This document shows, piece by piece, positions 34,992 to 58,009 of a stretch of DNA of 64,000 nt. The position numbers and the translations under genes were made by a program. Position 1 is the first letter of the stretch, and every line of letters starts with the position of its first letter. The stretch comes from Candidatus Dormiibacterota bacterium (lineage in GTDB: Bacteria; Chloroflexota; Dormibacteria; CF-121). The DNA is taken from NCBI GenBank assembly GCA_036782775.1, contig DAIPYJ010000006.1:4289-68288 (forward strand), given 5' to 3'. Below the pieces are notes generated by a model, which was not told where the DNA came from, ran no database searches, and saw only the letters and a program-made list of their open reading frames with translations.

Positions 34992-36164
34992 ATGCATCGA
35001 CTTGTCGCGGTCGCCATCACCTTCGCCGTGGTCCTAACGGGCTGCGGTCCCAAGGCGGCGTCGGTGGCCGGAAAGACGCATCCGACTCCCATCTCCAGTC
35101 CGTCGCCAACTGCCGAGTGGTTTGGCGTTGGTCAGCCTCAGTTGGTCGCCCTTTCCGACGGAAACGTCTGGAGCAGCATCGAAGTCGGTAAGAAGGGGTG
35201 GTCGAAGGCCTGGCTCTTCAGCAGCGTGGACGAAGCCAAGACCTGGCATCCGATTAGCGTTCCGGGCCTCGAATCGGTTGGCTATTTCCATCTTTTCGAT
35301 CGATCACATGCTGTCCTGGTCGATGAGTCCGGTAGTGCCGTGTACAGCACAGACGACGCCGGTACTCATTGGTCGCGTGGCAGTCTGCCGATTTCGGCCG
35401 ATGGAACCGTGCCGGCCTCCTTCGTCGACACGCACGAAGGTTGGGTACTGCTAACCGGCGACGCCCCGACCACGACCCTGTACCACACGCGGGACGCCGG
35501 CAAAAGCTGGACTAAAGTCGCGATCCCCCAAGCATTCGTCTATCCCGGCTCGATCTTTTTTCGGGATGCGCTCCACGGCTGGCTCGGTCATGCTGCCTCC
35601 GCGCCCGAGTTGTTCGCCACTAGGGATGGCGGCCAGACCTGGACGGCGGTCGAACTATCGTCCCCCCAGGCCTATCCGGGCGTGGTCTCCTTCGTGGACC
35701 CGGTTCAGGTCTCCGGAAGCGAGCTGCTCTTGATGGTGAACGTGACAGAGGGCGGGATGGGGTCAGGCTTTCCTACCTCGACCTACGTCTATTCGTCAGT
35801 AGACGATGGAATCGACTGGAGTCACAGTGTGCGGCTCACGACGGGTGTGACGGTGGCGACTGGAATGGCTGCGATCGAGGTCCAATCCGCGAACCATTGG
35901 GCGGTCGCAATCGGGACGACTTTTCGAACAACGTTCGACTCTGGGAAGACCTGGACGAGCTATAGCCTTGAGCCAACTCCCGGATTCGTGAACGCCGGCC
36001 TGGTTTTCGCAGATGCGCGCGATGGCTATCTGCTTCTGGGGCGGTCCGCCGACTACGGCGCTTGCTTGCAACACTGTTTCCTGCTGCAGCTGACGAAAGA
36101 CGGGGGCGCATCCTGGCGCACGGCCTCCTTCCCTGAAGTCCCCGCCGACCTGGCACCTCCCTAG
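34992..36164 (+). CDS. BNR/Asp-box repeat beta-propeller lipoprotein (Ycf48/sortilin-like)
   Basis: Lipobox LTGC. Six S/T-x-D-x-G-x-T/S-W motifs (TDDAGTHWS, TRDAGKSWT, TRDGGQTWT, SVDDGIDWS, TFDSGKTWT, TKDGGASWR). Confidence 0.7.
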   Translation: MHRLVAVAITFAVVLTGCGPKAASVAGKTHPTPISSPSPTAEWFGVGQPQLVALSDGNVWSSIEVGKKGWSKAWLFSSVDEAKTWHPISVPGLESVGYFHLFDRSHAVLVDESGSAVYSTDDAGTHWSRGSLPISADGTVPASFVDTHEGWVLLTGDAPTTTLYHTRDAGKSWTKVAIPQAFVYPGSIFFRDALHGWLGHAASAPELFATRDGGQTWTAVELSSPQAYPGVVSFVDPVQVSGSELLLMVNVTEGGMGSGFPTSTYVYSSVDDGIDWSHSVRLTTGVTVATGMAAIEVQSANHWAVAIGTTFRTTFDSGKTWTSYSLEPTPGFVNAGLVFADARDGYLLLGRSADYGACLQHCFLLQLTKDGGASWRTASFPEVPADLAPP

Positions 36165-40056: not shown

Positions 40057-40917
40057 ATGGGTGCCCATTCCAGCGGTCGACGCGCGCTCGCCGGCTTCTT
40101 TGGTCTGGTGCCGCTCGTCGTCGTCCTTTTTGGGGCGGTCGCGATGGTTGCCCTCCACCCGGTCGACGGCCTTGCCTGGGTGCAGGTGCCAGACCTTACG
40201 GCAGACCTCCGGTTGGATGCCGGGCTCAGTACGAAGCCCCTGAAAACGACGATCGTCGCGGAAGCGCTGCGCGATCAGGCGCTCGGTGGTGGCGCCCAGG
40301 CGTTGGTCGTTCCCCCCGCGCTCGCCGTCGTGCCGCCGCCCGCGATTGTGGCCGTCAGCCTGCCGCCTGCCGCCCGCCCGGTCGACACGCCGGCGCCGCA
40401 ACCGACCCCCGCACCGACCCCCGCCCCCACGCCCGCACCTGCACCCGCACCGGTGACGCCTCCGGCAGCGACACCCGCTCCAGCGCCGCAACCGACCCCC
40501 GCACCGACCGCCGCCCCCACGCCCCAACCGACGCCCGCACCGACGCCGGCTCCCACGGCGAGGCCGACTCCTGCCCCTAGCTTCGCCATCACGTTCGCGG
40601 GTGAGCTCGTCTGGAAGACGAACAGCTCAGGCAATGGGAATGGCAGCAACCGGTGCTCGCAGCTTACCGTGCATGCCTCGGGCGCCTTCACCACGAACGG
40701 TGCCGGCGGAGTCGTGTCATACGAGTGGGTTCGGGTCGACAACACCGGCAATCGAATCGTGATCAGCGAGGCGCCGATTCGGATTGCTGCCGGCGATAGA
40801 TCCTGGCATTCGGTCGTGAGCGACAGCTTTACACCGGCGCATAGCGGCTCGGAGCAGCTCGTCTTCCTCAGTCCCACCTATCCAGTCGCTGCGCAGAGCT
40901 GGAGCTGCCTTGGCTAG
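40057..40917 (+). CDS. membrane-anchored Pro/Ala/Thr-rich repeat protein with about 110-aa C-terminal globular domain
   Basis: N-terminal TM (FFGLVPLVVVLFGAVAMVAL). PTPAPTPAPTPAPAP... repeats. C-terminal domain with two Cys. 8-nt overlap with the GGDEF gene. Confidence 0.55.
   Translation: MGAHSSGRRALAGFFGLVPLVVVLFGAVAMVALHPVDGLAWVQVPDLTADLRLDAGLSTKPLKTTIVAEALRDQALGGGAQALVVPPALAVVPPPAIVAVSLPPAARPVDTPAPQPTPAPTPAPTPAPAPAPVTPPAATPAPAPQPTPAPTAAPTPQPTPAPTPAPTARPTPAPSFAITFAGELVWKTNSSGNGNGSNRCSQLTVHASGAFTTNGAGGVVSYEWVRVDNTGNRIVISEAPIRIAAGDRSWHSVVSDSFTPAHSGSEQLVFLSPTYPVAAQSWSCLG
40390..40570. repeat. tandem duplicated about 90-bp Pro-Ala-Thr codon repeat (CCGACCCCCGCACCGACC units)
   Basis: caaccgacccccgcaccgacc[c/g]ccgcccccacgcc occurs at about 40399 and about 40489. 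Confidence 0.6.
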
Positions 40918-43582
40918 GCGCCTGACGTTGCCGACGCTGAGGATCCGGATGCAGATCATCCTGCCGTTCCTCCTGCTCATGATGATCCTCGGAGTGATCG
41001 GCACCTATCTGACGACCAGTCTGGTTGCAGGCTCGCTCGAACGTCGCATTGCGGATCAGCTCGTGCAGGCGGAAAACGGGGCGCTCGACGCGGCCGTCAA
41101 ACTCCAGGGCCGCCAGGTAGCCGCGATTCGCCTGATCGCCAACACGGAAGGAGTCGACCAGGCCGTCCGCGCTGGCGACGCCGCCCAGCTCCGCCAGCTC
41201 ATCGTTCCACTCGAGGTCAACAACCGCCTCGGGACGGTAATGGTTTTTGACGCTTCTGGAAAGACCATCCTGGAAGTCAGCCAGCCGGATCCAACCAACC
41301 CCAACGGCCTGGTATTCCGCAGTGGCACCGACCTCGCCGCCGAGCCGGCCGTGCAGCCCGTATTGAAAGGCCAGTTCGACGCGCTCGGCGACAAGTACAT
41401 CGCGTATCTGGGCTCCCCTCCGACGGCGCTCGCCGCTGCCGGGCCCATCACGCTGGGTGACCGCGTCGTCGGTGGCGTCCTGATCGAGTCGCCATTGCCG
41501 GATGTCCTCGCTGAAATGGCGGGGGAGTCGCAGGCGCAGGTGACGCTGCTCGATACCAACGGTCGTGTCCTGGCCAGCACACTCACCGGGCTGCCTACCG
41601 GCTTGATGGACGACCACCTACGCTCGTATCTGTCGCTCGCCTCGCCGGGTCGGGCTGCGACCAGCACCATGACCGTCAACGGTCAGGCGTACGAGTTCCA
41701 GTTCACGAACTTTTATCTCCGCCAGCACGTCGAAGGGTTTCTCGCGGTGGCGCTCTCGCGCAAGGGCGTTATCGATGCCGGCGTGCAGTCCGCCATCCAG
41801 ATGACAGCGCTCTTCGCCGGGGTCGTCTTGATCCTGCTCTTGATCGGCTATCTGCTCGCATTGCGGCTCACGCGGCCGATCGAGGACCTGGTGGCCGGCA
41901 CCAGGGCGGTCGCGCGTGGCGATCTAAGCACGCGTCTGACGGTACGTCGAAAGGATGAGCTCGGTGAGCTCGCGCTCGCCTTCAACACCATGGCCCAGGA
42001 CCTGCAGGAGCGCACCCGATCGCTGAACGAGCAGATGCGCCGGCTGGCCGCCCTCTCGCAGACGAGCCAGGGACTGGGCCGCGACGAGGAACCCGGGGCG
42101 ATGGCCGAGGCGATCCTCGGTGTCAGCCTCAAAGCGCTCGGCCTGGAAAAGGCATTGTTGATGGCCCGCACCGATAGCGGTGGCCTCGAGACGCGGGCCA
42201 CGGTCGGTCTATCCTCCAAGGCGGCCGGCCAGTTGGGACGGATCAGCCCAGCCAAGCTGGCCGAGGGGTTCGCATCAGAGTCTGCCGCGGCGGTCAAGAC
42301 CGCCGTCCGCTTGACGGCGGATCCGCGTCTCGGGCTGCGGCTCTTTGGGGAGCTCGCCGGTGTCGAAGAAGCGCTGATCGTGCCGCTGCTTCGCGCCGAG
42401 CGGAACGCCGGCTATCTGGTGGCCGGTGTCGCCGCCGGCTACCGACTGCCGCAGCAGGATGTCGAGCTGCTGCAGACGATCGCGACCGAGATGGCGCTCA
42501 TGATGGAGAACGCCGAGCTGCGCAAGAAGACACAGCTCCAGGCGCACCGCCTCGACCAGGCCATCGTCGCGCTCGAGAAGATCTCTCAAGCCCTCACGAC
42601 CGTCACGGTGGGAACCGACAACCTCCTGCGGGCGGTGGCGCACGCCACCGCGGAGATCCTCGACGTCCCCTACGCCTCGCTTCATTTGCGCAAGTCCTCG
42701 TGGAAACAACAGTTTGCGGACGTCATCGTGGGGTCGACTGACCGCCGTGACCTGACGGCGATCCGGCACAGCGGCGAACTGGCGGCCCAGCGCGTGCAAC
42801 AACCTTCCCAGGTCGTCGACGTCGACCTGCTCGACGAGCGCGGCGCGCCGCTTCCTGCCGTCCGCCGGGCCGGCCTCAAGCGGGCGGTGGCAGTCCCGAT
42901 GTCCGTGGGCGGTGAGATCGTGGGCGTCCTCGTGATCCACATGCGGACGCCGCGTACGCTGGAGCGCAGCGAGGTCCGCGTGCTGCAGACGCTTGCCAAC
43001 CAGGCCGTGATTGCCATCGAAAACGCGGCCGCCTACGAGCAGACCAAGCAGCTGGCGACCACGGACGCGTTGACGGGCGTTGCCAACCACCGTGAGCTGG
43101 AGGCGTACCTCGATCGCGAGCTGCAACGAGCGGCCAGAACCGGAGAACCGCTGGCGCTCATCATGTGCGACCTCGACAATTTCAAAGAGATCAACGACAG
43201 CGTCGGCCATCCGGCCGGGGATCAGGTGTTGCGACATCTCACGCGGCGGATCCTCGTCCCCGCAGTCCGTCCCAAGGACCTGGTCGCCCGTTACGGCGGC
43301 GATGAGTTCGTCCTGGTGTTGCGCGGTGCTGACAGCCGGGTCGCGGTCGCCGTCGCCGAGCGGATCCGCAAGACCGTCGAGGGTCAAGCGGTGCTCGTCG
43401 ATGGCAAGGCGACCTCCAACCTGTCGGTCAGCCTGGGCATCGCCGTCTTCCCCCGCGACGGTGAGAACCGGGAATCGCTGGTGCAGGCAGCCGACCAGGC
43501 GCTCTACATGGCGAAGCGATCGGGCCGCAACCGCGTCGTCCGGACCGGCCTGTCGAACGGCGAACTGCAAGCAACCGCCTGA
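40910..43582 (+). CDS. sensor diguanylate cyclase: TM - extracytoplasmic sensor domain - TM - HAMP - 2xGAF - GGDEF
   Basis: C-terminal ..ALTGVANHRELEAYLDRE..LALIMCDLDNFKEINDSVGHPAGDQVL..RYGGDEFVLVL.. Two predicted TM helices about 270 aa apart. Confidence 0.85.
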   Translation: MARRLTLPTLRIRMQIILPFLLLMMILGVIGTYLTTSLVAGSLERRIADQLVQAENGALDAAVKLQGRQVAAIRLIANTEGVDQAVRAGDAAQLRQLIVPLEVNNRLGTVMVFDASGKTILEVSQPDPTNPNGLVFRSGTDLAAEPAVQPVLKGQFDALGDKYIAYLGSPPTALAAAGPITLGDRVVGGVLIESPLPDVLAEMAGESQAQVTLLDTNGRVLASTLTGLPTGLMDDHLRSYLSLASPGRAATSTMTVNGQAYEFQFTNFYLRQHVEGFLAVALSRKGVIDAGVQSAIQMTALFAGVVLILLLIGYLLALRLTRPIEDLVAGTRAVARGDLSTRLTVRRKDELGELALAFNTMAQDLQERTRSLNEQMRRLAALSQTSQGLGRDEEPGAMAEAILGVSLKALGLEKALLMARTDSGGLETRATVGLSSKAAGQLGRISPAKLAEGFASESAAAVKTAVRLTADPRLGLRLFGELAGVEEALIVPLLRAERNAGYLVAGVAAGYRLPQQDVELLQTIATEMALMMENAELRKKTQLQAHRLDQAIVALEKISQALTTVTVGTDNLLRAVAHATAEILDVPYASLHLRKSSWKQQFADVIVGSTDRRDLTAIRHSGELAAQRVQQPSQVVDVDLLDERGAPLPAVRRAGLKRAVAVPMSVGGEIVGVLVIHMRTPRTLERSEVRVLQTLANQAVIAIENAAAYEQTKQLATTDALTGVANHRELEAYLDRELQRAARTGEPLALIMCDLDNFKEINDSVGHPAGDQVLRHLTRRILVPAVRPKDLVARYGGDEFVLVLRGADSRVAVAVAERIRKTVEGQAVLVDGKATSNLSVSLGIAVFPRDGENRESLVQAADQALYMAKRSGRNRVVRTGLSNGELQATA

Positions 43583-47021: not shown

Positions 47022-47363
47022 ATGGTCTGGCAGGTGGGCGTGCTCCTGGTGGGGATCGGGTTCCTGATCGTCAGCCTCTTCGCCGCTTTCATCCTTCTGA
47101 ACATGACGCGGAGCCTGCGCACGGTCGAGGCCATCCTCAGCCTGACGCTTGACGAAGCCCGCCTGGCGCTGCCGGAACTTCGTCACAGCGTGCAGCAGAT
47201 CGACGACATGGTGACCGCGGTCAATGACAAGTTCACGACCGCCGATCGAGCGATGAATGCCACCGGCGCCGCCATCAGCGGCTGGCGCGACCGCGTCCGC
47301 GATACGCTCGGCGGAATCGGCCGGCGCAGGAGCGGACAGCATGCCGAGCGGGAGGAATCATGA
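47022..47363 (+). CDS. DUF948-like membrane protein
   Basis: N-terminal TM VGVLLVGIGFLIVSLFAAFILL followed by helical domain. AAAGGAGAG RBS upstream. 4-nt overlap with next gene. Confidence 0.6.
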   Translation: MVWQVGVLLVGIGFLIVSLFAAFILLNMTRSLRTVEAILSLTLDEARLALPELRHSVQQIDDMVTAVNDKFTTADRAMNATGAAISGWRDRVRDTLGGIGRRRSGQHAEREES

Positions 47364-47848
47364 GGGAAGGCCGCACCCGACAGCACACCGCCGACAGCCA
47401 CGAGGCCACCGCTGGCGGCTCGTACGTGACCGAGCTGAAGCTCCCGGCGGTTGGTGATTACATCGTGGTCGCCAAGCGGGCTGCCGCCTCGCTCGGGTTG
47501 GTGGTTGGCTTTTCGCTCCCCGAGATCGACGATCTGAACATCGCCATCACCCAGGCCTGCGAAAGCGCGTGTGCCACCGCCGCAGCCAAGTGGGGGAGGG
47601 GCAACGGCCAGCTCAAGTTGCTCTTCAAGAGCCAGCCGCGCAAACTCGAGGTGGAAGTCCGAAGCGTCCCACCGCGGGCGGTCGAGCAGCAACAGCAGGC
47701 GGCGGTCCGCCGGCGCGCGGAAGCCGACCTCGACTATGAAAGCATTGGCCTCAACATGATCCGGCTCTTTGTCGACGAGCTCCGCTATCAGGTCGACAAC
47801 CAGACCGGAAGCATGCGCATGAGGATGGTCAAATACCTGATCGAGTAG
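47360..47848 (+). CDS. anti-sigma factor, RsbW/SpoIIAB-like serine kinase (HATPase_c_2)
   Basis: LKLPAVGDYIVVAKRAAASLGLVVGFSLPEIDDLNIAITQACESA resembles RsbW N-region. Immediately upstream of the SigB/F-type sigma factor. Confidence 0.7.
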   Translation: MREGRTRQHTADSHEATAGGSYVTELKLPAVGDYIVVAKRAAASLGLVVGFSLPEIDDLNIAITQACESACATAAAKWGRGNGQLKLLFKSQPRKLEVEVRSVPPRAVEQQQQAAVRRRAEADLDYESIGLNMIRLFVDELRYQVDNQTGSMRMRMVKYLIE

Positions 47849-47850
47849 AA

Positions 47851-48630
47851 CGGCCGGCAACCACGTCCTCGACGACGGTCCGCCCCAATCGCGATCTCGT
47901 TCGACGCCTCTTCCTCAAGTACCAGAAAACCAAGGACCCCAAGGTCAGGCAGCAGCTCGTCGAGCTGTTCAACAACCTGGTGGTCTTCCTTGCCCGCAAG
48001 TTCGCCAATCGCGGCGAGCCGCTCGAGGACATCGTCCAGGTCGGCTATATCGGGCTGCTGCAGGCGATCGAGCGCTTCGAGCCGCAGCGCGGGCTGGAGT
48101 TCTCGACCTTCGCGACGCCCACCATCGTGGGCGAGATCAAGCGCTATTTCCGCGACAAGAGCTGGGCAGTCAAAGTGCCACGGCGTCTCCAGGAGACGAT
48201 GCAGCGCGCCGACCTCGCCGGGCAGCGCTTGCAGGCGCGCCTGGGACGCCAGCCGTCTGTGCAGGAGATCGCCAAGGAGTTGGAGCTCGACCCCGAAGAA
48301 GTGCTGGCGGCGATGGAGGCGAGTCCTGCCCAGCGCACCATCTCGTTCGAGTCGACCGGACCGGCGCCGCGCGACGACGACGGCCTGCAGCTAACCGAGC
48401 GCCTTGGGCTCGATGACCAGAACCTCGATAAGGTCGAGCTGCAGGATCTGCTCGACCAGGCGATGCGGCACCTGACGCCGCGCGAGCGCCGCATCATGTA
48501 CCTGCGCTTCGTCGACGAGCTGCCCCAGGCGGAGGTCGCCAAGCGGCTTGGCATCTCGCAGATGCACGTCTCTCGCCTGCAGCGCGCCGCCGTTGAGCGG
48601 CTCAAACGGGAGTTACCCGTCCCTGGTTAG
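47851..48630 (+). CDS. group-3 sigma factor (SigB/SigF family)
   Basis: Regions 2-4: LARKFANRGEPLEDIVQVGYIGLLQAIERF, region 3, C-terminal HTH LPQAEVAKRLGISQMHVSRLQ. Region 2.1 lies upstream of the first canonical start (GTG 47980). Frame is open from 47740 with no ATG/GTG/TTG. Confidence 0.8.
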   Translation, partial: RPATTSSTTVRPNRDLVRRLFLKYQKTKDPKVRQQLVELFNNLVVFLARKFANRGEPLEDIVQVGYIGLLQAIERFEPQRGLEFSTFATPTIVGEIKRYFRDKSWAVKVPRRLQETMQRADLAGQRLQARLGRQPSVQEIAKELELDPEEVLAAMEASPAQRTISFESTGPAPRDDDGLQLTERLGLDDQNLDKVELQDLLDQAMRHLTPRERRIMYLRFVDELPQAEVAKRLGISQMHVSRLQRAAVERLKRELPVPG

Positions 48631-49065
48631 TTAGGGGACCAGAGGCGGTGCCGGCCCGGTCTTGCGATCGAGGTTGGCCACGTGCTGATCGACGTCCTTG
48701 AGTTCGGCAGTCACCTGCGCAAGATCGGCATCGAGCTGCGCAATCTTGGCGGCGAGATCCCGCATCGAGGGATCGAGGTTGGCGGTGTTCGACTGGATCT
48801 GGTTGAGCCGGGCGTCCATCTGGTGGATGTCCGGCTGGATGCGGTCGAGGTCCGCGCGCATGGCATCGAGCCGGCTGACGGATGGAGCGCTGCTCGGGAG
48901 CGATGAGCCGAGCTGGCGCATCTGCTGAAGCATCAGAAACATCTCGATCACGATGACGGCGAGAAAGACGATCATGACTGCTCCCGCCCAGACGAGGGCC
49001 CGGCGGAGCGGGTCTGGCGAGCCGGCGGCGTTGCTGATCCGCCTGCCAAGTGCGCTCATATTCAC
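48631..49065 (-). CDS. membrane-anchored coiled-coil protein with periodic LDxxxAxLD repeats
   Basis: N-terminal TM ALVWAGAVMIVFLAVIVIEMFLML then repeated LDAMRADLDRIQ / LDPSMRDLAAKIAQLDADLAQVTAELKDVDQHVANLD. The DNA shows corresponding imperfect direct repeats. Confidence 0.5.
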   Translation of the reverse strand: MNMSALGRRISNAAGSPDPLRRALVWAGAVMIVFLAVIVIEMFLMLQQMRQLGSSLPSSAPSVSRLDAMRADLDRIQPDIHQMDARLNQIQSNTANLDPSMRDLAAKIAQLDADLAQVTAELKDVDQHVANLDRKTGPAPPLVP

Positions 49066-49113: not shown

Positions 49114-51711
49114 ATGCAGAGCGCGCGAGGACCGAGAGTGAACAGCGCGGATATCCGCCGGCGTTTTCTCAACTTCTTCAACGAGCGGGACCACAAGGTG
49201 TTGCCGAGTTCATCCCTGATCCCGTTCGGCGATCCATCCTTGCTCTTTACCAGTGCGGGCATGGTGCAGTTCAAGCCCTATTTCCTGGGCCAGAGCAAGC
49301 CGCCGCATCCGCGAGCCGCCACCTGTCAGAAAGTGTTTCGCGCCGTCGACATCGACGTGGTCGGCCATGACGGGCATCACCTCACCTATTTCGAGATGCT
49401 CGGCAATTTTTCCTTCGGCGACTACTTCAAAGAAAAGGCGATTCCTTATGCCTACGAGTTCCTGACGCGGCAGCTCGGGCTCGAGGAGTCACGCCTGTGG
49501 GCCGGAGTTCACAACGACGATGACGAGGCCTACGAGATCTGGGTAAAGACCGGCATCCCGGCTGAGAGGGTCCGTCGCTTTGGTGACGAGTACAACTTCT
49601 GGGCCGCCGGTCCGACCGGTCCCTGTGGACCGGACTCCGAGGTCCACTACGACTGGGGCGAGCAGTACAGCTGTGGACGCCCTGACTGCGGGCCGAACTG
49701 CGAGTACTGCGACCGCTTCCTCGAGATCTGGAATCTGGTTTTTATGCAATGGAACCGGGATCAGGCAGGCAATCGAACCGACCTGGAACGAAAGGGAATC
49801 GACACCGGCATGGGCCTCGAGCGCATCACGGCAGTCGTCAACGGCTACCCGACGGCGGGTGCCCGGCTGAAACGGCCTCCTTCCGGCGTTTTTGAGACCG
49901 ATGCCTTTAAGCCGCTCATCGAGCACTGGGCGCAGGAGACCGATCACCCATATGGCGCCAACGCTCAGTCCGATGTCTCGCTCAAAATCCTCGCGGACCA
50001 CGCACGCGGCGCCACCATGCTGCTGGCGGATGGCGTCATGCCGGCCAATGACGGCCGCGGCTACGTGCTCCGCCGCCTGATCCGGCGGGCCATGGTCCAC
50101 GCCCGTCGTCTGGACGCCGACGCGACACTCTCCTCGGGGGTCCCGATCGTCGACGAGATTCTGGGCGCTGCCTATCCGGAGTTAGGGCACAAGATTGGAG
50201 AGATCCAGTCGATCCTGCAGGCGGAAGAAGATCGCTTTGCCGTCGCGCTGCGGCAGGGAACGGAACGGCTGCAAGGACTGCTGGAGCGGGGAGCGCTCAG
50301 CCCCGAAGAGGTCTTCTACCTGCACGACACGATGGGCTTTCCCGTCGAGCTGACGGCTGAGCTGGCACAGGAACGCGGCGTCACGGTCGACATGACGGCC
50401 GTGGCATCCCTGATGGAACGGCAACGGGAGCGCAGCCGCGGAGCGACTGCCGACTTTGGAGCGCCGGTCGCCGGGAGTGCGACGCGCTTCGTCGGCTATG
50501 ACCGTCTCGAATCGGAAAGCGTCGTCACGGAAATCTTTCCCGTGCCTGGCGACGACAAGGTCAGCGATGTGTTTCTCGATCAGACACCCTTTTATGCCGA
50601 GCGCGGCGGTCAGGCGGCGGACCGCGGATGGTTGCGATCGGACGGTTCGCAGTACGAGGTCGTCGATGCTCAATGGCAGGGTGATGCCATCCGGCATCGC
50701 GTGCTGATGCCCCCGGGCCGTCTACGGGTAGGCGACCCGGTCCGCGCCGCGGTCGACGCGGGCCGACGGCAGGCGATCGCCCGGCATCATTCGGCGACGC
50801 ATCTCTTGCACCGCGCCCTGAAAGACATCGTCGGCGAGGAAGCGAAACAAGCCGGGTCATCGGTCCAGGCGGAGTACGCGACCTTCGACTTCGGCTTTCC
50901 CCGGGCGCTCGAACGCGACGAGCTGGACAGGGTCTCCAGCCGGCTCAATCAGCAGATCCGCGCCAATCTCGAACGCCGCGTCGAACAGTTGCCGCTGGCC
51001 GAGGCGATGGCGAGTGGTGCCATCGCGCTCTTCGACGAGAAGTACGGCGAGGTCGTCCGCGTCGTGAGCTTCGGCGATTGGGCCCGCGAGCTCTGTGGTG
51101 GCACGCATGTCGAGCGTAGCGGGGATATCGGCGTCGCGCTGCTCTCCGGAGACCGCAGCATCGGAGCCGGCGTCCGCCGCATCGAGATGCGCGCCGGGGA
51201 GGCAGCCGAGCGGCAGATTCGCGAAGAGGAACGGGTGCTGACCCAACTGCAGGAGGCGCTTCGCGCCAGCGCCGGCGAGCTTTCGTCGCGAGTAGCCGCC
51301 CTCCAGGCTGAGGTCAAACGGCTCGAGAAAGACAGCGCGACGCTCCGCCAGCGGTTAGCCGCGGGCGGCACCGCTCGAGTGCAGGAGGCGAGCGTCAATG
51401 GCGTGCGCCTCGTTCTTCAGCGGCTCGACGAGGGCGAGAAAGAGCTGCTGGTCTTTGCCGATCAGACCCTCAACCGCGCGAATGGCAACAGCGTGGCGAT
51501 CGTGGTCAGCGGCCGAAACTTCGCGGTCAAGGTCGCGAGCCCGCTGGCAAGCCGGTTACCCGCGAACGACCTCGTGCAGGCTTTCCGCCAGGTCGCCGGC
51601 GGCAAGGGCGGCGGCCGAGGGCCGGTGGGACAGGGCGGGGGCATCGATCCGGACCGCGTCGAGGCGGCATTCAAAACGGTGCAGGACTACGTGCGGGCGC
51701 ACCTCTCATGA
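49114..51711 (+). CDS. alaS: alanyl-tRNA synthetase
   Basis: FLNFFNERDHKVLPSSSLIP, C-Ala domain, GGG C-terminus. Confidence 0.9.
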   Translation: MQSARGPRVNSADIRRRFLNFFNERDHKVLPSSSLIPFGDPSLLFTSAGMVQFKPYFLGQSKPPHPRAATCQKVFRAVDIDVVGHDGHHLTYFEMLGNFSFGDYFKEKAIPYAYEFLTRQLGLEESRLWAGVHNDDDEAYEIWVKTGIPAERVRRFGDEYNFWAAGPTGPCGPDSEVHYDWGEQYSCGRPDCGPNCEYCDRFLEIWNLVFMQWNRDQAGNRTDLERKGIDTGMGLERITAVVNGYPTAGARLKRPPSGVFETDAFKPLIEHWAQETDHPYGANAQSDVSLKILADHARGATMLLADGVMPANDGRGYVLRRLIRRAMVHARRLDADATLSSGVPIVDEILGAAYPELGHKIGEIQSILQAEEDRFAVALRQGTERLQGLLERGALSPEEVFYLHDTMGFPVELTAELAQERGVTVDMTAVASLMERQRERSRGATADFGAPVAGSATRFVGYDRLESESVVTEIFPVPGDDKVSDVFLDQTPFYAERGGQAADRGWLRSDGSQYEVVDAQWQGDAIRHRVLMPPGRLRVGDPVRAAVDAGRRQAIARHHSATHLLHRALKDIVGEEAKQAGSSVQAEYATFDFGFPRALERDELDRVSSRLNQQIRANLERRVEQLPLAEAMASGAIALFDEKYGEVVRVVSFGDWARELCGGTHVERSGDIGVALLSGDRSIGAGVRRIEMRAGEAAERQIREEERVLTQLQEALRASAGELSSRVAALQAEVKRLEKDSATLRQRLAAGGTARVQEASVNGVRLVLQRLDEGEKELLVFADQTLNRANGNSVAIVVSGRNFAVKVASPLASRLPANDLVQAFRQVAGGKGGGRGPVGQGGGIDPDRVEAAFKTVQDYVRAHLS

Positions 51712-52979
51712 TCAAGATCAAGGATCGGATCAAGCGCCTCCGCCGCGGATCGGACTACGAGAATTACTACACGGCGCTCGACATTGGCACGGAGTACATC
51801 AAGGCGCTGGTGGTCAAGCGCGAAGGCCGCAATGGCGTAGTCCTCGGAGCCTCGAAGCAGCGCCAGGAATACGCCGACATGCAGGGCGGCGTGCCAGCCA
51901 ACATCCAGGGCATCATCGACCGTTGCGACCGGGCGATGTCGCAGGCGGAGGACATGTGCGACACCATTCCCGGCCAGGCGGTGATCGGGATCGCCGGGGA
52001 GCAGGTCAAGGGCTTCAGCACCTCGATCAGCGTGCCTCGCTCCGATCCAACCCTCAAGATCACGGAAAACGAGCTGATGCAGACGCTGCAGCTGGTCGAG
52101 AAGCGGGCGCTACGCGAGGCGCAGCATGCGATGAGCCTCGAGCTGGGGGTCCCCGACGTCGACGTCAAGCTGATCAACTCGGCGATCACCGGCGTGAAGA
52201 TCGACGGGTACCCAGTCAATGACCCGCTGGGTTTCCAGGGCCGCACGATGGTGATCACGATCTTCAACACCTTCGCGCCACTGACGCACGTTGGTGCACT
52301 GCAGACGATCGCCTCGGAGCTCGACCTCGAACTGGTCGCCACGGTTGCCGAGCCCTACGCGATGGCACGCTGCGCGGCCACCGACGAGGTGTACGACTTC
52401 GGCGGGATCTTCATCGATGTCGGCGGCGGCACCACCGATATTGCCCTGATCCGAAACGGCGGCATCGAGGGGACGCGAATGTTCCCGATCGGCGGCCGGG
52501 TCTTCACCAAGAAATTGGCGGCGCGCTTTGGCATCTCGTTCGCCGACGCCGAGGCGGTCAAGCTGAGACATTCACGAAAGGAACTGCCGCCCGAGCACGC
52601 CGAGAAGGTCCACAGCGTGCTCGCCCGCGACGCCGAAGTCCTTGTCGAAGGCATCGCCATCACCCTGCAGGAGATGTCGAAGGGTGATCGCCTGCCCACC
52701 GCGATCTACCTTGCCGGCGGTGGAAGCGCCCTGCCTGAGCTCAAGGAGCAGCTCAGCCGCTTTCCGTGGGCCGAGAAGATGCCGTTTGCGCGCACGCCGA
52801 CCGTCACCCCGCTACGCCCGCTCGACATCCGGGGCATCTACGACTCGACCGGACTGCTCCTCGACCAGCAGGACATCACCCCGATGGGCCTCGCCTTCCA
52901 TGCCATTCAGCAGCAGTCCGAAGATCAGGCGCCGCTGTTCGGCCTGATGCGAAAGGTGCTGAAGGCGATGCGTGTCTGA
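51708..52979 (+). CDS. FtsA/PilM-family actin-like ATPase with C-terminal amphipathic membrane-targeting helix
   Basis: Actin-fold motifs DIGTEYIKALVV (phosphate 1), FIDVGGGTTDIALI (phosphate 2), AGGGSALP (adenosine). C-terminal PLFGLMRKVLKAMRV. ATGA overlap with alaS stop. Confidence 0.75.
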   Translation: MIKIKDRIKRLRRGSDYENYYTALDIGTEYIKALVVKREGRNGVVLGASKQRQEYADMQGGVPANIQGIIDRCDRAMSQAEDMCDTIPGQAVIGIAGEQVKGFSTSISVPRSDPTLKITENELMQTLQLVEKRALREAQHAMSLELGVPDVDVKLINSAITGVKIDGYPVNDPLGFQGRTMVITIFNTFAPLTHVGALQTIASELDLELVATVAEPYAMARCAATDEVYDFGGIFIDVGGGTTDIALIRNGGIEGTRMFPIGGRVFTKKLAARFGISFADAEAVKLRHSRKELPPEHAEKVHSVLARDAEVLVEGIAITLQEMSKGDRLPTAIYLAGGGSALPELKEQLSRFPWAEKMPFARTPTVTPLRPLDIRGIYDSTGLLLDQQDITPMGLAFHAIQQQSEDQAPLFGLMRKVLKAMRV

Positions 52980-53111
52980 TTCCGGAAAGTCTGATGCCAA
53001 CGGGCTCATCTTTCCCGAAGTGACCCCTTATCGCTGCGACAAAAGCTGACACCGTAGCAACTCGACAATCCGTGGCGTTTCCGTTATGAAAGGCAGCGGC
53101 GTGTTAAAACT

Positions 53112-54698
53112 GTGAAGACTCTGGCCAAGCTGCTCTACGTCGAAGCCGACGAGGAGATCACCGATCTCGTCGATCGCCTCCGCGATTTGAGCCTCGAAGA
53201 CGAGGTGACGTTCGTCGTCCCCGAGCGTGCCAGGTCACTGCAAAGTGCGATGAGCTTTCGCCTGCTCAAGCGCTATGCCGACAGCTACGGCAAGAAGGTC
53301 AACCTCGTGAGTGCCGATCCGCGGCTTCAGGCGATGGCGCTCGAGGCCGGCTTCACCACCTTTCCCACGATGGCGGCGTACGACCACGGGACTCAGGTTC
53401 ACCAACCGGCGCTGATCGACGAGCCTGACGTTCCTGTCTACCGCCCCATCGAATCCGGGCGCGCAATCGCAAGCACCGCTGGCGTGGCCACCCTGGAGCG
53501 TCCCAAGCAGGTCACGTCCGCCCCACCGAAGAAGGCTGCGCCTGGCTCGTCGTTGCCTTCGGGGCCGCCGCTTCGCGTCTACCGGCCCTACCTGATTGGC
53601 GCCGGCGTGCTGGTATTGCTGGGCCTGCTTGCGGGAATTCTGTATCTGCCGACGGCGAGCGCGGCGCTCATCGTCGCCGGGACGCCGATCAAGGAAGACA
53701 TCACGCTGAACGGCGCGCCCGGAGCGCAGACCAGCGGCGACCAGTTCGCAACGCAGGCGGTGCATGCGAGCCAGCAGCAGAGTCTACCCGGCACAGCGAC
53801 GGGCCAGAAGCCGGTAGCCGCTGTCGCGGCGTCTGGGAACGTGACATTTTCATATTCGAATTGCTTCATTTTCTGTCAGCCGATTCCCAAGGGCTGGACT
53901 GTCGAGACCGCCGATGGGGCCCAGAAATTTGCGACGCAAAAGGTTGCGAGCATCAACGGTACTGGTGGGAACGTCACGGTGCCGGTCGTTGCGGAGGCGG
54001 CTGGCGCTGCGGGCAACGTTGCAGCTGGCCAAATCTCAAAGATTCAAGGCAATGGCGACGACAGCATTACCGTTAGCAATGCCGACCCGACGACTGGCGG
54101 GGCTGACGCACGGACTGCGACCGTGATTCAGCAGTCAGACATCGACAGCGTCCGCGACGCCTATGCGAAGGACGCGACGCAGCAGGTTCAGGATCAGCTC
54201 AACAGCAAGGCGCAGGGAAAGAAAATCGTGCTCGTCGGCACCGGGGTGCAGGCGTCAGCGACCGCCGATCACAAAGTCGGCGACGAGGTCGGCGGGTTCA
54301 CGGTGACGGTCACGGTCGCAGGCGATGGCGTGGTGTTCGACGACGCTGCCGTGCAGAGTCTGCTCAAATCGGCGTTGCAACGGAAGCTGCCGCAAGGAAC
54401 CCAGCTCACCAGCGAGAACACCAAATTGACCTACGACGTCGCCAGCTCGAGCGCTGACGGCCACATCACCCTGAACGGCCATGCCTCCGGCTTCTATACG
54501 CCGGTTTACATCCAGTCGAACATCCGAGCCAAGCTCAAGGGCATGAGCCCGAGCAGGGCTCACGCCTTCCTGCAAACGCTGCCAAACGTGATCGACGCCA
54601 GGGTCACGCAGTCGCCCTTTGGGCTTCCCTGGCTGCCCCTGTTCTCGTCCCGGATCACGCTGCACTTTCAGGAGGTCGCCGGCTCCTCCAGCTCGTGA
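53112..54698 (+). CDS. bitopic membrane protein with about 175-aa cytoplasmic N-domain, one TM, and about 330-aa Gly/Ala/Thr/Val-rich extracytoplasmic beta-rich domain. Function unknown
   Basis: GTG start. TM LIGAGVLVLLGLLAGILYL. No recognisable family. 4-nt overlap with ruvX. Confidence 0.6.
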   Translation: MKTLAKLLYVEADEEITDLVDRLRDLSLEDEVTFVVPERARSLQSAMSFRLLKRYADSYGKKVNLVSADPRLQAMALEAGFTTFPTMAAYDHGTQVHQPALIDEPDVPVYRPIESGRAIASTAGVATLERPKQVTSAPPKKAAPGSSLPSGPPLRVYRPYLIGAGVLVLLGLLAGILYLPTASAALIVAGTPIKEDITLNGAPGAQTSGDQFATQAVHASQQQSLPGTATGQKPVAAVAASGNVTFSYSNCFIFCQPIPKGWTVETADGAQKFATQKVASINGTGGNVTVPVVAEAAGAAGNVAAGQISKIQGNGDDSITVSNADPTTGGADARTATVIQQSDIDSVRDAYAKDATQQVQDQLNSKAQGKKIVLVGTGVQASATADHKVGDEVGGFTVTVTVAGDGVVFDDAAVQSLLKSALQRKLPQGTQLTSENTKLTYDVASSSADGHITLNGHASGFYTPVYIQSNIRAKLKGMSPSRAHAFLQTLPNVIDARVTQSPFGLPWLPLFSSRITLHFQEVAGSSSS

Positions 54699-55123
54699 GG
54701 GTACTGGCGATCGATCCGGGCACGGTCCGTTTGGGCCTCGCCCTCAGCGATCCATCTGGAACCATCGCCCAGCCGCTTACCGTACTCCAGCGCCGCTCCG
54801 AAACTGAAGACCTGACCGCGCTCGCACGTCTCGTCGATGAGCATGCGGTGGAGATGATCGTGGTCGGGCTGCCGCGCACCATGGACGGCCGGCTGGAAGC
54901 GGCCGCGCAGGATGCCCAGGCGTTCGGCGCGCAGGTTGGCGAGCGGACCGGGCGGCCTGTAGCATACTGGGACGAACGCCTGACCACGGTGGCCGCCGAG
55001 CGCTATCTCATCGAACAGGGTAAGCGGCGCAACAAACGGCGCCAGGAAATCGACCGAATGGCAGCCACGTTAATGTTGCAGGGGTACCTCGACTACCAGC
55101 GCCGAGGCCGACCAGGAGGCTGA
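54695..55123 (+). CDS. ruvX: Holliday junction resolvase-like YqgF/RuvX
   Basis: VLAIDPGTVRLGLALSDPSG..., MIVVGLP. Confidence 0.85.
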   Translation: MRVLAIDPGTVRLGLALSDPSGTIAQPLTVLQRRSETEDLTALARLVDEHAVEMIVVGLPRTMDGRLEAAAQDAQAFGAQVGERTGRPVAYWDERLTTVAAERYLIEQGKRRNKRRQEIDRMAATLMLQGYLDYQRRGRPGG

Positions 55124-55408
55124 ATGCCAGAGTTTCCCGATGCGGACGGAGAGATCCAGACCATCGAGCTCGTCAACGAAAAAACGGGAGAAGAGGAAAG
55201 CTACGTCGTGCACGACGTGGTCGAGATCGAGGGGGAGACTTATTACGTCCTGCAGGCGGAGGCTGACGAGGATCAGGTCCTGATCCTGCGCCGCGAGGGC
55301 GAGTCCCTGGTCACGCTTGACGACGAGGAGCATGACCGGATCGTCGAGCAGATGGAGGCCTTCGAAGAGGAAGACGACGTGGACGAAGACGGTGGGACGG
55401 AGGGCTAA
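55124..55408 (+). CDS. DUF1292 acidic protein (YrzB-like)
   Basis: Conserved position between ruvX and mltG. Acidic IELVNEKTGEEESYVV..ETYYVLQ. Confidence 0.7.
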   Translation: MPEFPDADGEIQTIELVNEKTGEEESYVVHDVVEIEGETYYVLQAEADEDQVLILRREGESLVTLDDEEHDRIVEQMEAFEEEDDVDEDGGTEG

Positions 55409-56485
55409 CTGAATCCCGCTCGGCGGCTGCACGAATCGCCCGCCCCACGCCGTCGCAGCCGCCTCGTTGGTTGTCTCCAACTCGTCGCCGTCGTCATCGT
55501 TCTGCTCCCGGCCGCGGTCGGGATTCCCGGCGTGTTTGCCTACAACTGGGTCGACCATCAGCTCCACCAGCCGGTCAATCCCTCGACCGCCAAGGTGCGC
55601 TTCGTCGTTCAGCCCGGTTCCACCTTCCACGAGGTCGCCGATACGCTTCATCGCGCCGGGCTGATCGATAACGTCACGGTCTTCGATCTCTACGCCCGCT
55701 TCAAGCACCTCGACCGCAATGTGCAGGCGGGGGCCTATCAGCTCAGCCGGAACCTCAGCCCGGTCCAGATCCTGACCGCGCTCCAGACCGCCGTCCCGGA
55801 CGAGATCTACATCGCCATTCCCGAGGGGTACACGATCAAGAAGACCGCAGCTCTGCTCGACCAGGGCGGCGTCATCAAGGGCAGCGACTATGTCGCCCAA
55901 GCCGTCGCCGGCTCCTACTCCTATCCGTTCCTCAAAGACGTGCCGGCCGGCACCTCGCTGGAAGGGTTTCTCTTCCCGGACACCTACCTCGTGCCGAGAG
56001 CGGGTACCGCGAAGCAGCTGATCACGCTGCAGTTGAACGCCTTCGGCAGCCACTGGACCGAGGCGCGCAGCGGGCTGGCGGCCCAACGACGGCTCAGCCC
56101 GCAGCAGGTCGTCACGATCGCGTCGATGATCGAGCGCGAGGCTCGCTTCGACAACGATCGGCCGCTGGTGGCGAGCGTGATCTACAACCGCTTGCAGGCA
56201 GGCTGGCCCCTGCAGATCGACGCGACCGTGCTGTACGCCAAGGGGGTCTGGCAGTCGACCGTCACCAAGGACGACCGCAATATTCAGTCGCCTTACAACA
56301 CCTATTTACATACCGGACTTCCGCCTGGACCGATTGCGAATCCTGGCATCAAAGCGATCGATGCCGCGCTCCAGCCCGCGCAGACGGGCTACTTCTTCTA
56401 CCTCTCCGACCCCCAGGGCCACAACCACTACGCCCGCACCAACGACGAGTTCAACCAGCTTCTCAGGCAATACGGACTCCAGTAG
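55409..56485 (+). CDS. mltG: endolytic murein transglycosylase MltG (YceG-like)
   Basis: YceG domain. Frame open from DUF1292 stop and encodes the expected N-terminal TM (LQLVAVVIVLLPAAVGIPGVFAY) upstream of the first canonical start (ATG 55532). Start probably CTG 55409 or 55427. Confidence 0.85.
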   Translation: MNPARRLHESPAPRRRSRLVGCLQLVAVVIVLLPAAVGIPGVFAYNWVDHQLHQPVNPSTAKVRFVVQPGSTFHEVADTLHRAGLIDNVTVFDLYARFKHLDRNVQAGAYQLSRNLSPVQILTALQTAVPDEIYIAIPEGYTIKKTAALLDQGGVIKGSDYVAQAVAGSYSYPFLKDVPAGTSLEGFLFPDTYLVPRAGTAKQLITLQLNAFGSHWTEARSGLAAQRRLSPQQVVTIASMIEREARFDNDRPLVASVIYNRLQAGWPLQIDATVLYAKGVWQSTVTKDDRNIQSPYNTYLHTGLPPGPIANPGIKAIDAALQPAQTGYFFYLSDPQGHNHYARTNDEFNQLLRQYGLQ

Positions 56486-56505: not shown

Positions 56506-57341
56506 CCGACCGGTCGAGCCTGCTGCTCCTGGGGGACGACCCCGGTATGGAGCTCGCCGCAAGTCTCTACCAGGCAGCCTTCGATGCGGCGGGGCTCCCG
56601 ACGAGATGCGCGATCGCGCGCGGTGGGCTCAAAGATTTGGACGCCGCCGTGGCACGGCTCCGCTCGAGGCGCTCGATCACGGGGGCCGCGGTGCTGATGC
56701 CATACACGGTTTCGATCGCGGGCCGGCTCGACGGGCTGGGGCCCGAGGCGCAGTCCGCCGGGGCGGTGAATACGGTCAGTCACAAGGCCGGCAGATTGAT
56801 TGGCTGGAACACGGATCGTGCAGGCTTCGCGCGAGCCCTGGAGGACAGCGGTTTCACTGCCCGCGGCAAGGCGGTCCTCGTGCTCGGCGCCGGGGGAGCC
56901 GCCCGTGCGTGCGTCGACGTGATGCGGGATGAAGCCAGCCGGGTGTGGGTTGCGGCGCCCGACCTCGACGAGGCCCGCGTGCTATGTCGCGACCTCAAGG
57001 TTGCGGCCGGCGGGCCGACGCCGATCGGCACTCTCGCTCTGCTGGTCAAAAAAGTCGACCTGATCGTCAATGCCACTCCCGTCGGAATGGACGGCACGAG
57101 CATGCTCTTTCCGGCCGAGTGGCTGATGCCATCCCATTTTGTGTTCGATCTCATCTATTCGCCGGCGCTGACCCCGCTGGTCGGCGCGGCGCGCGAGCGA
57201 GGCGCCCGAGCGGTCAACGGGCTCAGCATGCTGCTTTTCCAGGCCCTCGCCGCCTTCGAGATCTGGGCGGGCCAGCCGGCGCCCGAGGCGCCCATGCGCG
57301 CGGCGCTCGAGCGCGCCGTGCTCGAACACCTGACGCCGTGA
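56506..57341 (+). CDS. aroE: shikimate dehydrogenase
   Basis: NTD substrate-binding region, VLVLGAGGAARA Rossmann. Start uncertain: CTG about 56520, or ATG 56361 giving a low-complexity extension overlapping mltG. Confidence 0.8.
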
Positions 57342-58009
57342 GCGGGCTCTTGCTTGCGCTCGCATGGGCGCTCGTGGGCGCTGCCGTCGGCACCGGACTC
57401 AATTTCTTATCGCGATGGCTGGCTCGCGTCGAGGAAATCGAGTTTCACCAGTCACTCCCCGAAGCGCTGCTGATGCCGCTGCTGGCGGCCGGGCTCTTCT
57501 TCGCCTTCGCCTGGCAGCTCGGCGCGCACCGCCTGCTCATCATCAATTCGGTCTACGCGGCGATCCTGGTCCAGGTCCTGGCGTTCGATCTCAAGACCCG
57601 ATACATCCTCGACCTGGTGATGTTTCCCAGCTGGGTGATTGCCTTCGGCCTCGCCTTCATCACCCCATGGACGCCCGGTCTCGGCTGGCCGGGGCCTGAC
57701 TGGCGAACCTCGCTCTTCGCCGCGGTCCTCGCCGGCGTCGTCTTCCTCGTGCTCTACCTTGGCGGGCAGCTGATCTTTGGGGCCGAGGCGTTCGGCTTCG
57801 GTGACGTCAAGCTCGCCGTCTTCATCGGCATGGCCACCGGGCTTTCGAATCTGCGTATGGTGCATGCCATCCTCTACGGGGTTTTCCTCGGAGGACTGGT
57901 GGCGATAATTCTGCTCATCACGCGGATCCGCAGCATGAAAGAGGCCGTCCCATACGGGCCGTTCCTGGTCACCGGCACGCTGCTCATCCTGCTCACCCAG
58001 GCGCCGTGA
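57338..58009 (+). CDS. type IV prepilin peptidase (A24 family)
   Basis: GTG start overlapping aroE stop. Multi-TM with FGFGDVKL catalytic Asp region. Confidence 0.8.
   Translation: MSGLLLALAWALVGAAVGTGLNFLSRWLARVEEIEFHQSLPEALLMPLLAAGLFFAFAWQLGAHRLLIINSVYAAILVQVLAFDLKTRYILDLVMFPSWVIAFGLAFITPWTPGLGWPGPDWRTSLFAAVLAGVVFLVLYLGGQLIFGAEAFGFGDVKLAVFIGMATGLSNLRMVHAILYGVFLGGLVAIILLITRIRSMKEAVPYGPFLVTGTLLILLTQAP

Follow-up and report, generated by a model that had tools for sequence, protein, structure and literature searches.

What do an FtsA-like ATPase and a large bitopic membrane protein do in the middle of a block of housekeeping genes? The question is raised by a 64,000-nucleotide (nt) stretch of contig DAIPYJ010000006.1, from the metagenome-assembled genome of a Candidatus Dormiibacterota soil bacterium (the window, i.e., the whole stretch of DNA that was analysed). 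Two open reading frames (ORFs) lie there between alaS and ruvX: ORF1, encoding an FtsA-like protein (protein A), and ORF2, encoding a membrane protein (protein B). The original prediction, made from the letters of this DNA, had given their coordinates and lengths, an ATGA overlap of alaS with ORF1 and an overlap of ORF2 with ruvX, all of which are borne out by the ORF map (Table 1). The results lead to the conclusions that: (i) the ORF1 family, whose defining trait is the partnership with ORF2, is an orthologous family separate from the FtsA of the dcw (division and cell wall) cluster; (ii) as judged from the sequences, the pair is a vertically inherited and lineage-wide feature of Dormibacterota and of the Candidate Phyla Radiation (CPR), and not a local insertion; (iii) more likely than not, the two proteins form an ancient envelope-spanning module, in which ORF1 would engage the cytoplasmic domain of ORF2 during wall growth or division.

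The pairing itself is strict. ORF2 is found directly 3' of ORF1 in all the loci from L001 to L040 that hold both genes whole (34 of 34, the two genes being −4 to 132 nt apart) and in 25 of the 26 metagenomic ORF1-family loci whose contig reaches past the first gene, the exception being L069. The proposal of a genuine two-gene module holds. The order alaS - ORF1 - ORF2 - ruvX - mltG is kept in relatives of just 25-39% identity, in Dormibacterota as well as in CPR/Patescibacteria, over a G+C (GC) content of 35-76%. The pair is also retained amid entirely different neighbours in L030 (a metagenome-assembled genome labelled Bdellovibrionales) and in the CPR loci L039 and L040, and even in CPR genomes smaller than 1 Mb; the ORF1 family is near-universal in tiny CPR genomes. 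The CPR partner is a homologue of ORF2 along its full length (hhalign probability 100%, E 3e-39, 506 columns). The pair is thus not the peculiarity of a single genome that it had seemed to be, and the word «inserted» is right only if Firmicutes and Actinobacteria are taken as the reference: across Dormibacterota and CPR the five-gene order is inherited.

Both families are large. A profile built from two distant ORF1 relatives retrieves thousands of proteins of 420-422 amino acids (aa), with source names such as Parcubacteria, Moranbacteria and «Patescibacteria group», and 7852 of the 8000 candidates scored are significant. Close relatives of ORF1 carry the names Dormibacteraeota, Chloroflexi/Chloroflexota and Limnocylindrales. 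An exhaustive search for the ORF2 family gives 4728 representatives (clustering at 50% identity) at E<=1e-3 and 1544 at E<=1e-10, most of them sharing the layout N-terminal domain, transmembrane (TM) helix and ectodomain. The scan of a genome collection with the ORF2 protein returned only close Dormibacterota relatives.

A scan of metagenomes with the ORF1-family alignment gave 80 loci, i.e., group A (L041-L072), group B (L074-L120) and L073, a fragment of 122 residues (52% identical to ORF1) which belongs to neither group. Identity to ORF1 is 37-90% in group A and 24-29% in group B; the scores obtained with the ORF1-family hidden Markov model (HMM) are 330-760 bits and 78-113 bits, respectively, group B consisting mostly of ftsZ-adjacent FtsAs. 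The gene located directly 3' is ftsZ in 37 of 46 group B loci (most of the others end at the contig edge), and no relative of ORF2 was ever found in the loci of this group. Conversely, ftsZ was never found in the loci of group A (GC 35-76%), about half of which have ruvX and mltG right after the pair, alaS being usually 5'. More generally, ftsZ does not occur within 7-10 kb of the ORF1 family in ~70 loci, and the FtsZ signature was not found anywhere in the 64-kb window.

The same separation is obtained with the curated FtsA profile NCBIfam TIGR01174, whose equivalog cutoff is 175.85 bits. ORF1 scores 100.6 bits, with a match restricted to positions 3-269 of the 371 positions of the profile. 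Ten diverse members of its family (nine from group A plus CPR L039) score 91-118 bits over approximately the first 260 positions. All 11 tested proteins are therefore below the cutoff, whereas the ten ftsZ-adjacent controls taken from group B are all above it (326-498 bits) and match over the full length. ORF1 has no match to SHS2_FTSA in Pfam. Identity, HMM score, TIGR01174 and downstream gene thus split the sequences into two clean groups, which distinguishes the ORF1 family from the dcw-cluster FtsA.

These results bear directly on the first of the rival explanations, according to which ORF1 is the only FtsA of its lineage, i.e., a divergent FtsA which left the dcw cluster and tethers FtsZ to the membrane, ORF2 being a dedicated partner in the late divisome that was acquired later and acts like FtsN or FtsQ on the outer side of the membrane. 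This is possible, although rather unlikely. FtsA is the closest relative of ORF1, both by sequence and by structure, and ORF1 ends with an amphipathic helix of the FtsA type. An essential role can be argued from the near-universal presence of the family in tiny CPR genomes. Moreover, the gene annotated as ftsA in TM7x (TM7x_02800) lies ~400 genes away from ftsZ (TM7x_00785). The partial, sub-cutoff matches of 11 members out of 11, the lack of SHS2_FTSA and the absence of ftsZ around ~70 loci speak against it. In addition, FtsA-domain genes belong to the conserved ftsZ neighbourhood in CPR also (PMC9871819); since ftsZ is missing from the ORF1-family loci, a second gene is implied. In Dehalococcoidia, ftsA and ftsZ are likewise adjacent (PMC10608941). 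The hints from the literature on the coexistence of the two FtsA families are indirect and conflicting, and the termini of group B FtsZs look proteobacterial or Bacteroidetes-like, so that this group is uninformative on coexistence in Dormibacterota or CPR. It is nevertheless fairly likely that canonical FtsA and the ORF1 family coexist in the same genomes.

FtsA is the nearest profile of ORF1, yet ORF1 remains under every curated threshold: it fails the PilM profile TIGR01175 (41.4 bits for a cutoff of 133) and reaches only ~29 bits with the MreB profile. The structural model is that of an actin fold in which subdomain 1C replaces 1B, i.e., the predicted FtsA/PilM architecture is complete. 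The three actin-type nucleotide motifs that had been predicted are all there, without variation in 68 members of the family; the phosphate-2 pattern also recovers canonical FtsAs. The C-terminal amphipathic helix, predicted as well, contains the 11-mer and the 14-mer of highest hydrophobic moment of the protein and is conserved across the family, where all group A members have one of two flavours (...LMRKVLKAMKV or ...KEKLNRILRI). From the model and these properties, it is a candidate membrane-targeting sequence of the FtsA type. At the other end, residues 2-11 form a short, basic and partly amphipathic helix before the first beta-strand (IKIKDRIKRL here, FFSKIxxRR in CPR), which recalls the N-terminal membrane helix of some MreBs; the confidence of the model is low there.

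PilM is not known to have an FtsA-type C-terminal amphipathic helix, which counts for the preceding alternative and against the next one, namely that ORF1 is a PilM-type platform on which a type IV filament or secretion machine is assembled, ORF2 being its PilN/GspL-like bitopic partner. This is improbable. A Peptidase_A24 gene is found three genes downstream of the pair, TadE-domain genes are found upstream in L032 and L036, and type IV pili are abundant in CPR (PMC9938205). On the other hand, TIGR01175 gives 41 bits for a cutoff of 133, none of the loci inspected contains pilB/C/T/N/O/P/Q genes, and ORF2 has no similarity with PilN or PilO. The A24 gene is part of an aroE-efp synteny common to other phyla, which are not known to have the pair. 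The PilMNO reading was rejected on gene context. The original prediction, which saw neither a dcw-cluster FtsA nor a PilMNO set in this locus, agrees with the profile scores and the gene context; its statement that pilus genes are not adjacent is correct for pilN/O/P/Q and overlooks the A24 gene, which belongs to an older conserved synteny.

ORF2 does belong to a recognisable family, contrary to what had been proposed. It matches Pfam Baseplate_J PF04865 (E 4e-12, 46.4 bits for a gathering cutoff of 21.1, residues 230-333) and PHROG 6 «baseplate wedge subunit» (2.6e-13). The partner of ORF1 is thus formally a member of a known family, Baseplate J/gp47, but not of PilN/PilO or FtsQ: no profile or fold match was obtained to FtsQ/DivIB (POTRA) or to PilN/PilO. 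With a partner from a phage baseplate wedge family, the pair becomes odder, not more ordinary. The AlphaFold2 (AF2) model of ORF2, computed from an alignment of 97 sequences, is of high confidence, with a predicted local distance difference test (pLDDT) value of 89.4, and has four parts, i.e., an alpha/beta domain, a disordered linker, one TM helix and an ectodomain. The topology with a single hydrophobic helix, as originally described, agrees with the model. In this model the ectodomain is beta-rich and three-part (residues 181-522), and the predicted multi-domain wedge fold extends across the whole of it. The GG-x-D motif of wedge proteins is conserved (G329/G330 and D343). Among ORF2 homologues the position of the TM helix ranges from ~135 to ~320. 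Between distant members, identity is highest for the N-terminal domain (38%), followed by the ectodomain (27-31%) and the linker (18%).

As ORF2 matches baseplate wedge proteins in Pfam, in PHROG and in structure, it could be taken for what is left of a prophage or of a contractile injection system (CIS), whose baseplate gene would have landed here by chance. This is extremely improbable. No sheath, tube, spike or gp7/TssG-like gene is present in any locus, and the neighbours are all housekeeping genes; the composition of ORF2 is that of the neighbouring genes; the synteny within a housekeeping operon is strictly vertical across phyla; ORF2 has a TM anchor and a cytoplasmic domain; its identity to the wedge proteins of phages and injection systems is 9-23% only. 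Moreover, no relative was found when viral contigs were scanned with the ORF1-family alignment. The context, the distribution and the lack of ORF1-family relatives in viral contigs effectively exclude a phage remnant.

The N-terminal domain of ORF2 has a predicted fold that may be STAS-like; no significant STAS match was obtained at the sequence level. Helix 2 of this domain carries a conserved Ser at its N-cap. Short ORF2 paralogues (~360-380 aa; P0316, P0303 and ~30 other matches) have an N-terminal TM helix and a wedge-like ectodomain without cytoplasmic domain. Two of them, P0316 (L121 432-1547) and P0303 (L122 237-1355), with a GC content of 0.64-0.65, have no adjoining FtsA-like gene (n=2, contigs of 2-3 kb). 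One of these two is followed by an extracytoplasmic function (ECF) sigma factor gene and by a 184-aa gene with no Pfam match.

Another alternative is a membrane-anchored partner-switching sensor, in which the putative STAS-like domain of ORF2 would act on an RsbW-like kinase and a SigB/F-like sigma factor encoded upstream, and report the state of the envelope through the ectodomain. Just 5' of alaS, the window has a gene for an RsbW/SpoIIAB-like anti-sigma kinase (HATPase_c_2) and, after it, one for a SigB/F-type sigma factor; the same two genes are found 5' of alaS in the Dormibacterota-like loci L032 (2729-4035), L034 (2743-4040) and L036 (2542-3899), with no Pfam STAS gene on record. The conserved Ser and the ECF sigma gene adjoining one short paralogue go in the same direction. 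Against this, there is no STAS signal in the sequence, the CPR loci keep the pair without sigma or anti-sigma neighbours, and the obligatory FtsA-like partner is left unexplained. This explanation is improbable too; by weight, the rivals rank in the order sole FtsA, PilM-like platform, STAS partner-switching sensor and phage remnant.

The envelope-spanning module stated at the outset would work as follows. ORF1 would sit on the inner face of the membrane as a peripheral protein, held there by its C-terminal amphipathic helix. Once membrane-bound, loaded with ATP and possibly polymerised, it would bind the cytoplasmic domain of ORF2, i.e., a protein predicted to consist of a conserved alpha/beta domain, a long disordered tether, one TM helix and a wedge-fold domain outside. 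This binding would position or cluster the outer domain in the wall, where it may oligomerise; in phages the baseplate wedge fold self-associates into dimers and rings. The N-terminal domain of ORF2 is proposed as the coupling element because no other part of the protein is as well conserved and because the short paralogues P0316 and P0303, which do not have it, are not found beside an ORF1-family gene. A role in the growth of the cell envelope or in division, with co-expression of the glycan-strand terminase MltG, is suggested by the lasting position of the pair beside mltG and by the wall and polysaccharide genes which surround it in CPR loci.

Several points weigh against this reading. The contact between the two proteins is itself deduced, and the comparison with short paralogues relies on n=2, on contigs of 2-3 kb. 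The position beside mltG could reflect an inherited synteny and not a shared function; other phyla have a conserved alaS-ruvX-mltG block in which the pair is not known to occur. TM7x_02800 could be a member of the ORF1 family and the sole FtsA-like gene of that genome. Finally, ORF1 may simply be the FtsA of these lineages if no other FtsA is present.

A bolder version, in which CPR and Dormibacterota share a so far unrecognised cytoskeletal-envelope machine whose inner FtsA paralogue organises outer rings or lattices of a cellular homologue of baseplate wedges, is unlikely. If true, it would describe a housekeeping relative of the contractile-tail baseplate, could bear on the division, envelope shape or attachment of wall-bearing and often epibiotic ultrasmall cells, and could also bear on a shared pre-viral origin of phage baseplate wedges and of ORF2.

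The features of the locus are collected in Table 1. The base composition is even throughout the block, ORF1 and ORF2 being like the neighbouring genes. Within 48.5-56.6 kb, no promoter-like site was found, hence none internal to the block, and terminator-like sites are no commoner than in shuffled sequence; no Rfam family matches within 48-57 kb. All this is consistent with a single operon. The translational coupling that had been put forward agrees, for alaS and ORF1, with the overlap of the ATG and the stop; ORF1 and ORF2 are 132 nt apart and are not coupled here. This spacer, which gave no Rfam, promoter or terminator match, is 70-132 nt long in Dormibacterota, versus −4 to 62 nt (mostly −4 to 28) in distant lineages. 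GCA_036567485.1 encodes a protein with 100% identity to ORF2, and ORF1 differs from the copy of that assembly (L001 7525-8796) by two residues, K9E and V313A; the window therefore stems from an assembly or strain that is very close to it without being the same.

Table 1. Position of the features of the locus in the 64-kb window
Feature	Position	Strand	Remarks
alaS	49114-51711	+	alanyl-tRNA synthetase, opens the conserved block; Pfam tRNA-synt_2c 2.7e-164, tRNA_SAD, DHHA1; stop overlaps ORF1 start
ORF1 (protein A)	51708-52979	+	423 aa, FtsA-like actin-fold ATPase; ATG inside alaS stop (ATGA)
ORF1, short N-terminal helix (residues 2-11)	51711-51740	+	
ORF1, phosphate-1 motif DIGTE (residues 25-29)	51780-51794	+	D25, G27, T28, E29 invariant in 68 sequences
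ORF1, phosphate-2 motif DVGGGTTD (residues 237-244)	52416-52439	+	D237, G239, G240, T242, D244 invariant (68 sequences)
ORF1, adenosine-binding motif GGGS (residues 337-340)	52716-52727	+	G337, G338, G339, S340 invariant (68 sequences)
ORF1, C-terminal amphipathic helix (residues ~408-423)	52929-52976	+	candidate membrane-targeting sequence; helix 408-422 in AF2 model
ORF1-ORF2 spacer	52980-53111	+	132 nt
ORF2 (protein B)	53112-54698	+	528 aa, GTG start, bitopic membrane protein; stop overlaps ruvX start at 54695
ORF2, cytoplasmic N-terminal alpha/beta domain (residues 5-92)	53124-53387	+	predicted fold resembles STAS/SpoIIAA
ORF2, disordered Pro/Ala-rich linker (residues 93-157)	53388-53582	+	pLDDT 45-60; ~50 to 200 aa in relatives
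ORF2, single TM helix (residues 158-180)	53583-53651	+	hydropathy peak 2.55; helix 158-178 in model
ORF2, extracytoplasmic domain (residues 181-528)	53652-54695	+	homologue of the baseplate wedge proteins of phages and CIS (P2 J / Mu gp47 / T4 gp6 class)
ruvX/yqgF	54695-55123	+	directly 3' of ORF2; Pfam RuvX 1.3e-42
DUF1292-like gene	55124-55408	+	small acidic product; Pfam DUF1292 3.9e-4, under gathering score
mltG/yceG	55532-56485	+	peptidoglycan endolytic transglycosylase family; Pfam YceG 7e-82; 3' of the pair in most lineages
Peptidase_A24 gene	56945-58009	+	prepilin-peptidase family; three genes downstream of the pair
Anti-sigma kinase gene (47360-47848), then sigma gene	47360-48630	+	
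Gene of a 144-aa coiled-coil protein	48631-49065	−	
dCache-HAMP-GAF-GGDEF protein gene	40910-43582	+	
BNR/Sortilin-Vps10-like protein gene	34992-36164	+	

The remainder of the window is made of housekeeping genes (topA, rpsB, tsf, pyrH, frr, uppS, cdsA, dxr, ispG, proS, relA, hisS, aspS, efp and others), with two stand-outs, i.e., a large dCache-HAMP-GAF-GGDEF signalling protein and a BNR/Sortilin-Vps10-like beta-propeller protein. Between the sigma factor gene and alaS lies a divergently transcribed gene whose 144-aa product has a hydrophobic helix at its N-terminus, together with a long coiled coil, and only weak matches to generic coiled-coil Pfam families; at the same position L001 has a 142-aa gene with no Pfam match. 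In the Peptidase_A24 gene, whose ORF has 354 aa, the domain is limited to residues 203-321, for which a miscalled start or an N-terminal extension of the protein may account; this gene is found 3' of aroE in the Dormibacterota-type pair loci L032, L033, L034 and L036. In CPR loci, divergently transcribed genes are located near the pair: two RodZ-like paralogues (HTH_25 plus RodZ_C) in L038, 383-2336 (−), and a gene pair of conserved length (~330 aa plus ~125 aa) with no Pfam match in L039, 5100-7452 (−), and L040, 8545-9913 (−).

Full-text literature searches, which are thin on subscription journals, returned no paper pairing the two proteins, describing the module or reporting a function; on this basis the claim that the system is not a described one stands. 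In public annotations ORF1 proteins are named «cell division FtsA domain-containing protein» or «cell division protein FtsA», and ORF2 proteins «baseplate J/gp47 family protein». The first label masks a distinct family and the second wrongly implies a phage origin. As a consequence of the first, the «FtsA» counts given in surveys of CPR and Chloroflexota based on Pfam or COG probably mix both families. In two very large and mostly uncultured bacterial groups, few uncharacterised genes are as well conserved as this pair. If ORF1 is a second FtsA-type cytoskeletal protein with a TM partner, a new envelope or division module would become approachable in the genetically tractable Saccharibacteria, and cells would offer a clear case of use of the baseplate-wedge fold outside any injection machine. 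That an actin-like ATPase can be paired with a bitopic partner is already known. What is new is the ORF1 family, the architecture of the partner (alpha/beta domain, tether, TM helix and wedge ectodomain) and the housekeeping, phylum-spanning distribution, with a minority chance of something more fundamental.

By analogy, the arrangement of the two proteins is proposed to parallel those of FtsA-FtsN, PilM-PilN and MreB-RodZ. With FtsA (TIGR01174, PDB 7Q6D/3WQT/1E4F), ORF1 shares the nucleotide motifs and a short linker that leads to an amphipathic helix at the C-terminus. It differs from FtsA by: (i) its low identity (15-20% to solved FtsA structures, 24-29% to ftsZ-adjacent FtsAs); (ii) a sub-cutoff match to the first two thirds of the profile only, without SHS2_FTSA; (iii) its neighbours, since its genes never adjoin ftsQ or ftsZ and adjoin the ORF2 family instead; (iv) a helix devoid of the W/F-rich «...MKxWFxGNF» signature of many control FtsAs.

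The common feature with PilM-PilN and GspL is an FtsA-like ATPase fold together with a bitopic protein that probably docks through its cytoplasmic N-terminus. However, ORF2 has a folded domain of ~90 aa and a long tether where PilN has a short N-terminal peptide, its ectodomain has the baseplate wedge fold and not the ferredoxin-like fold of PilN/PilO, pilus genes do not accompany the pair, and ORF1 has its own predicted membrane helix. MreB-RodZ also associates an actin-like, membrane-associated protein with a bitopic protein in which a globular domain in the cytoplasm is joined by a linker and a TM helix to a domain on the outside, and is likewise tied to wall-synthesis genes. RodZ differs from ORF2 by its helix-turn-helix (HTH) domain and its small RodZ_C domain, and RodZ-like genes are present separately in the CPR locus L038. 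Lastly, the wedge proteins P2 gpJ, Mu gp47, T4 gp6, Pvc11/Afp11 and diffocin TRI-2 have a fold homologous to the ORF2 ectodomain over its whole length of ~340 aa. ORF2 differs from them by its N-terminal TM anchor and cytoplasmic domain, by loci devoid of gp7/TssG-like partner, sheath or tube genes, and by its place in a housekeeping operon that is vertically inherited in cellular lineages.

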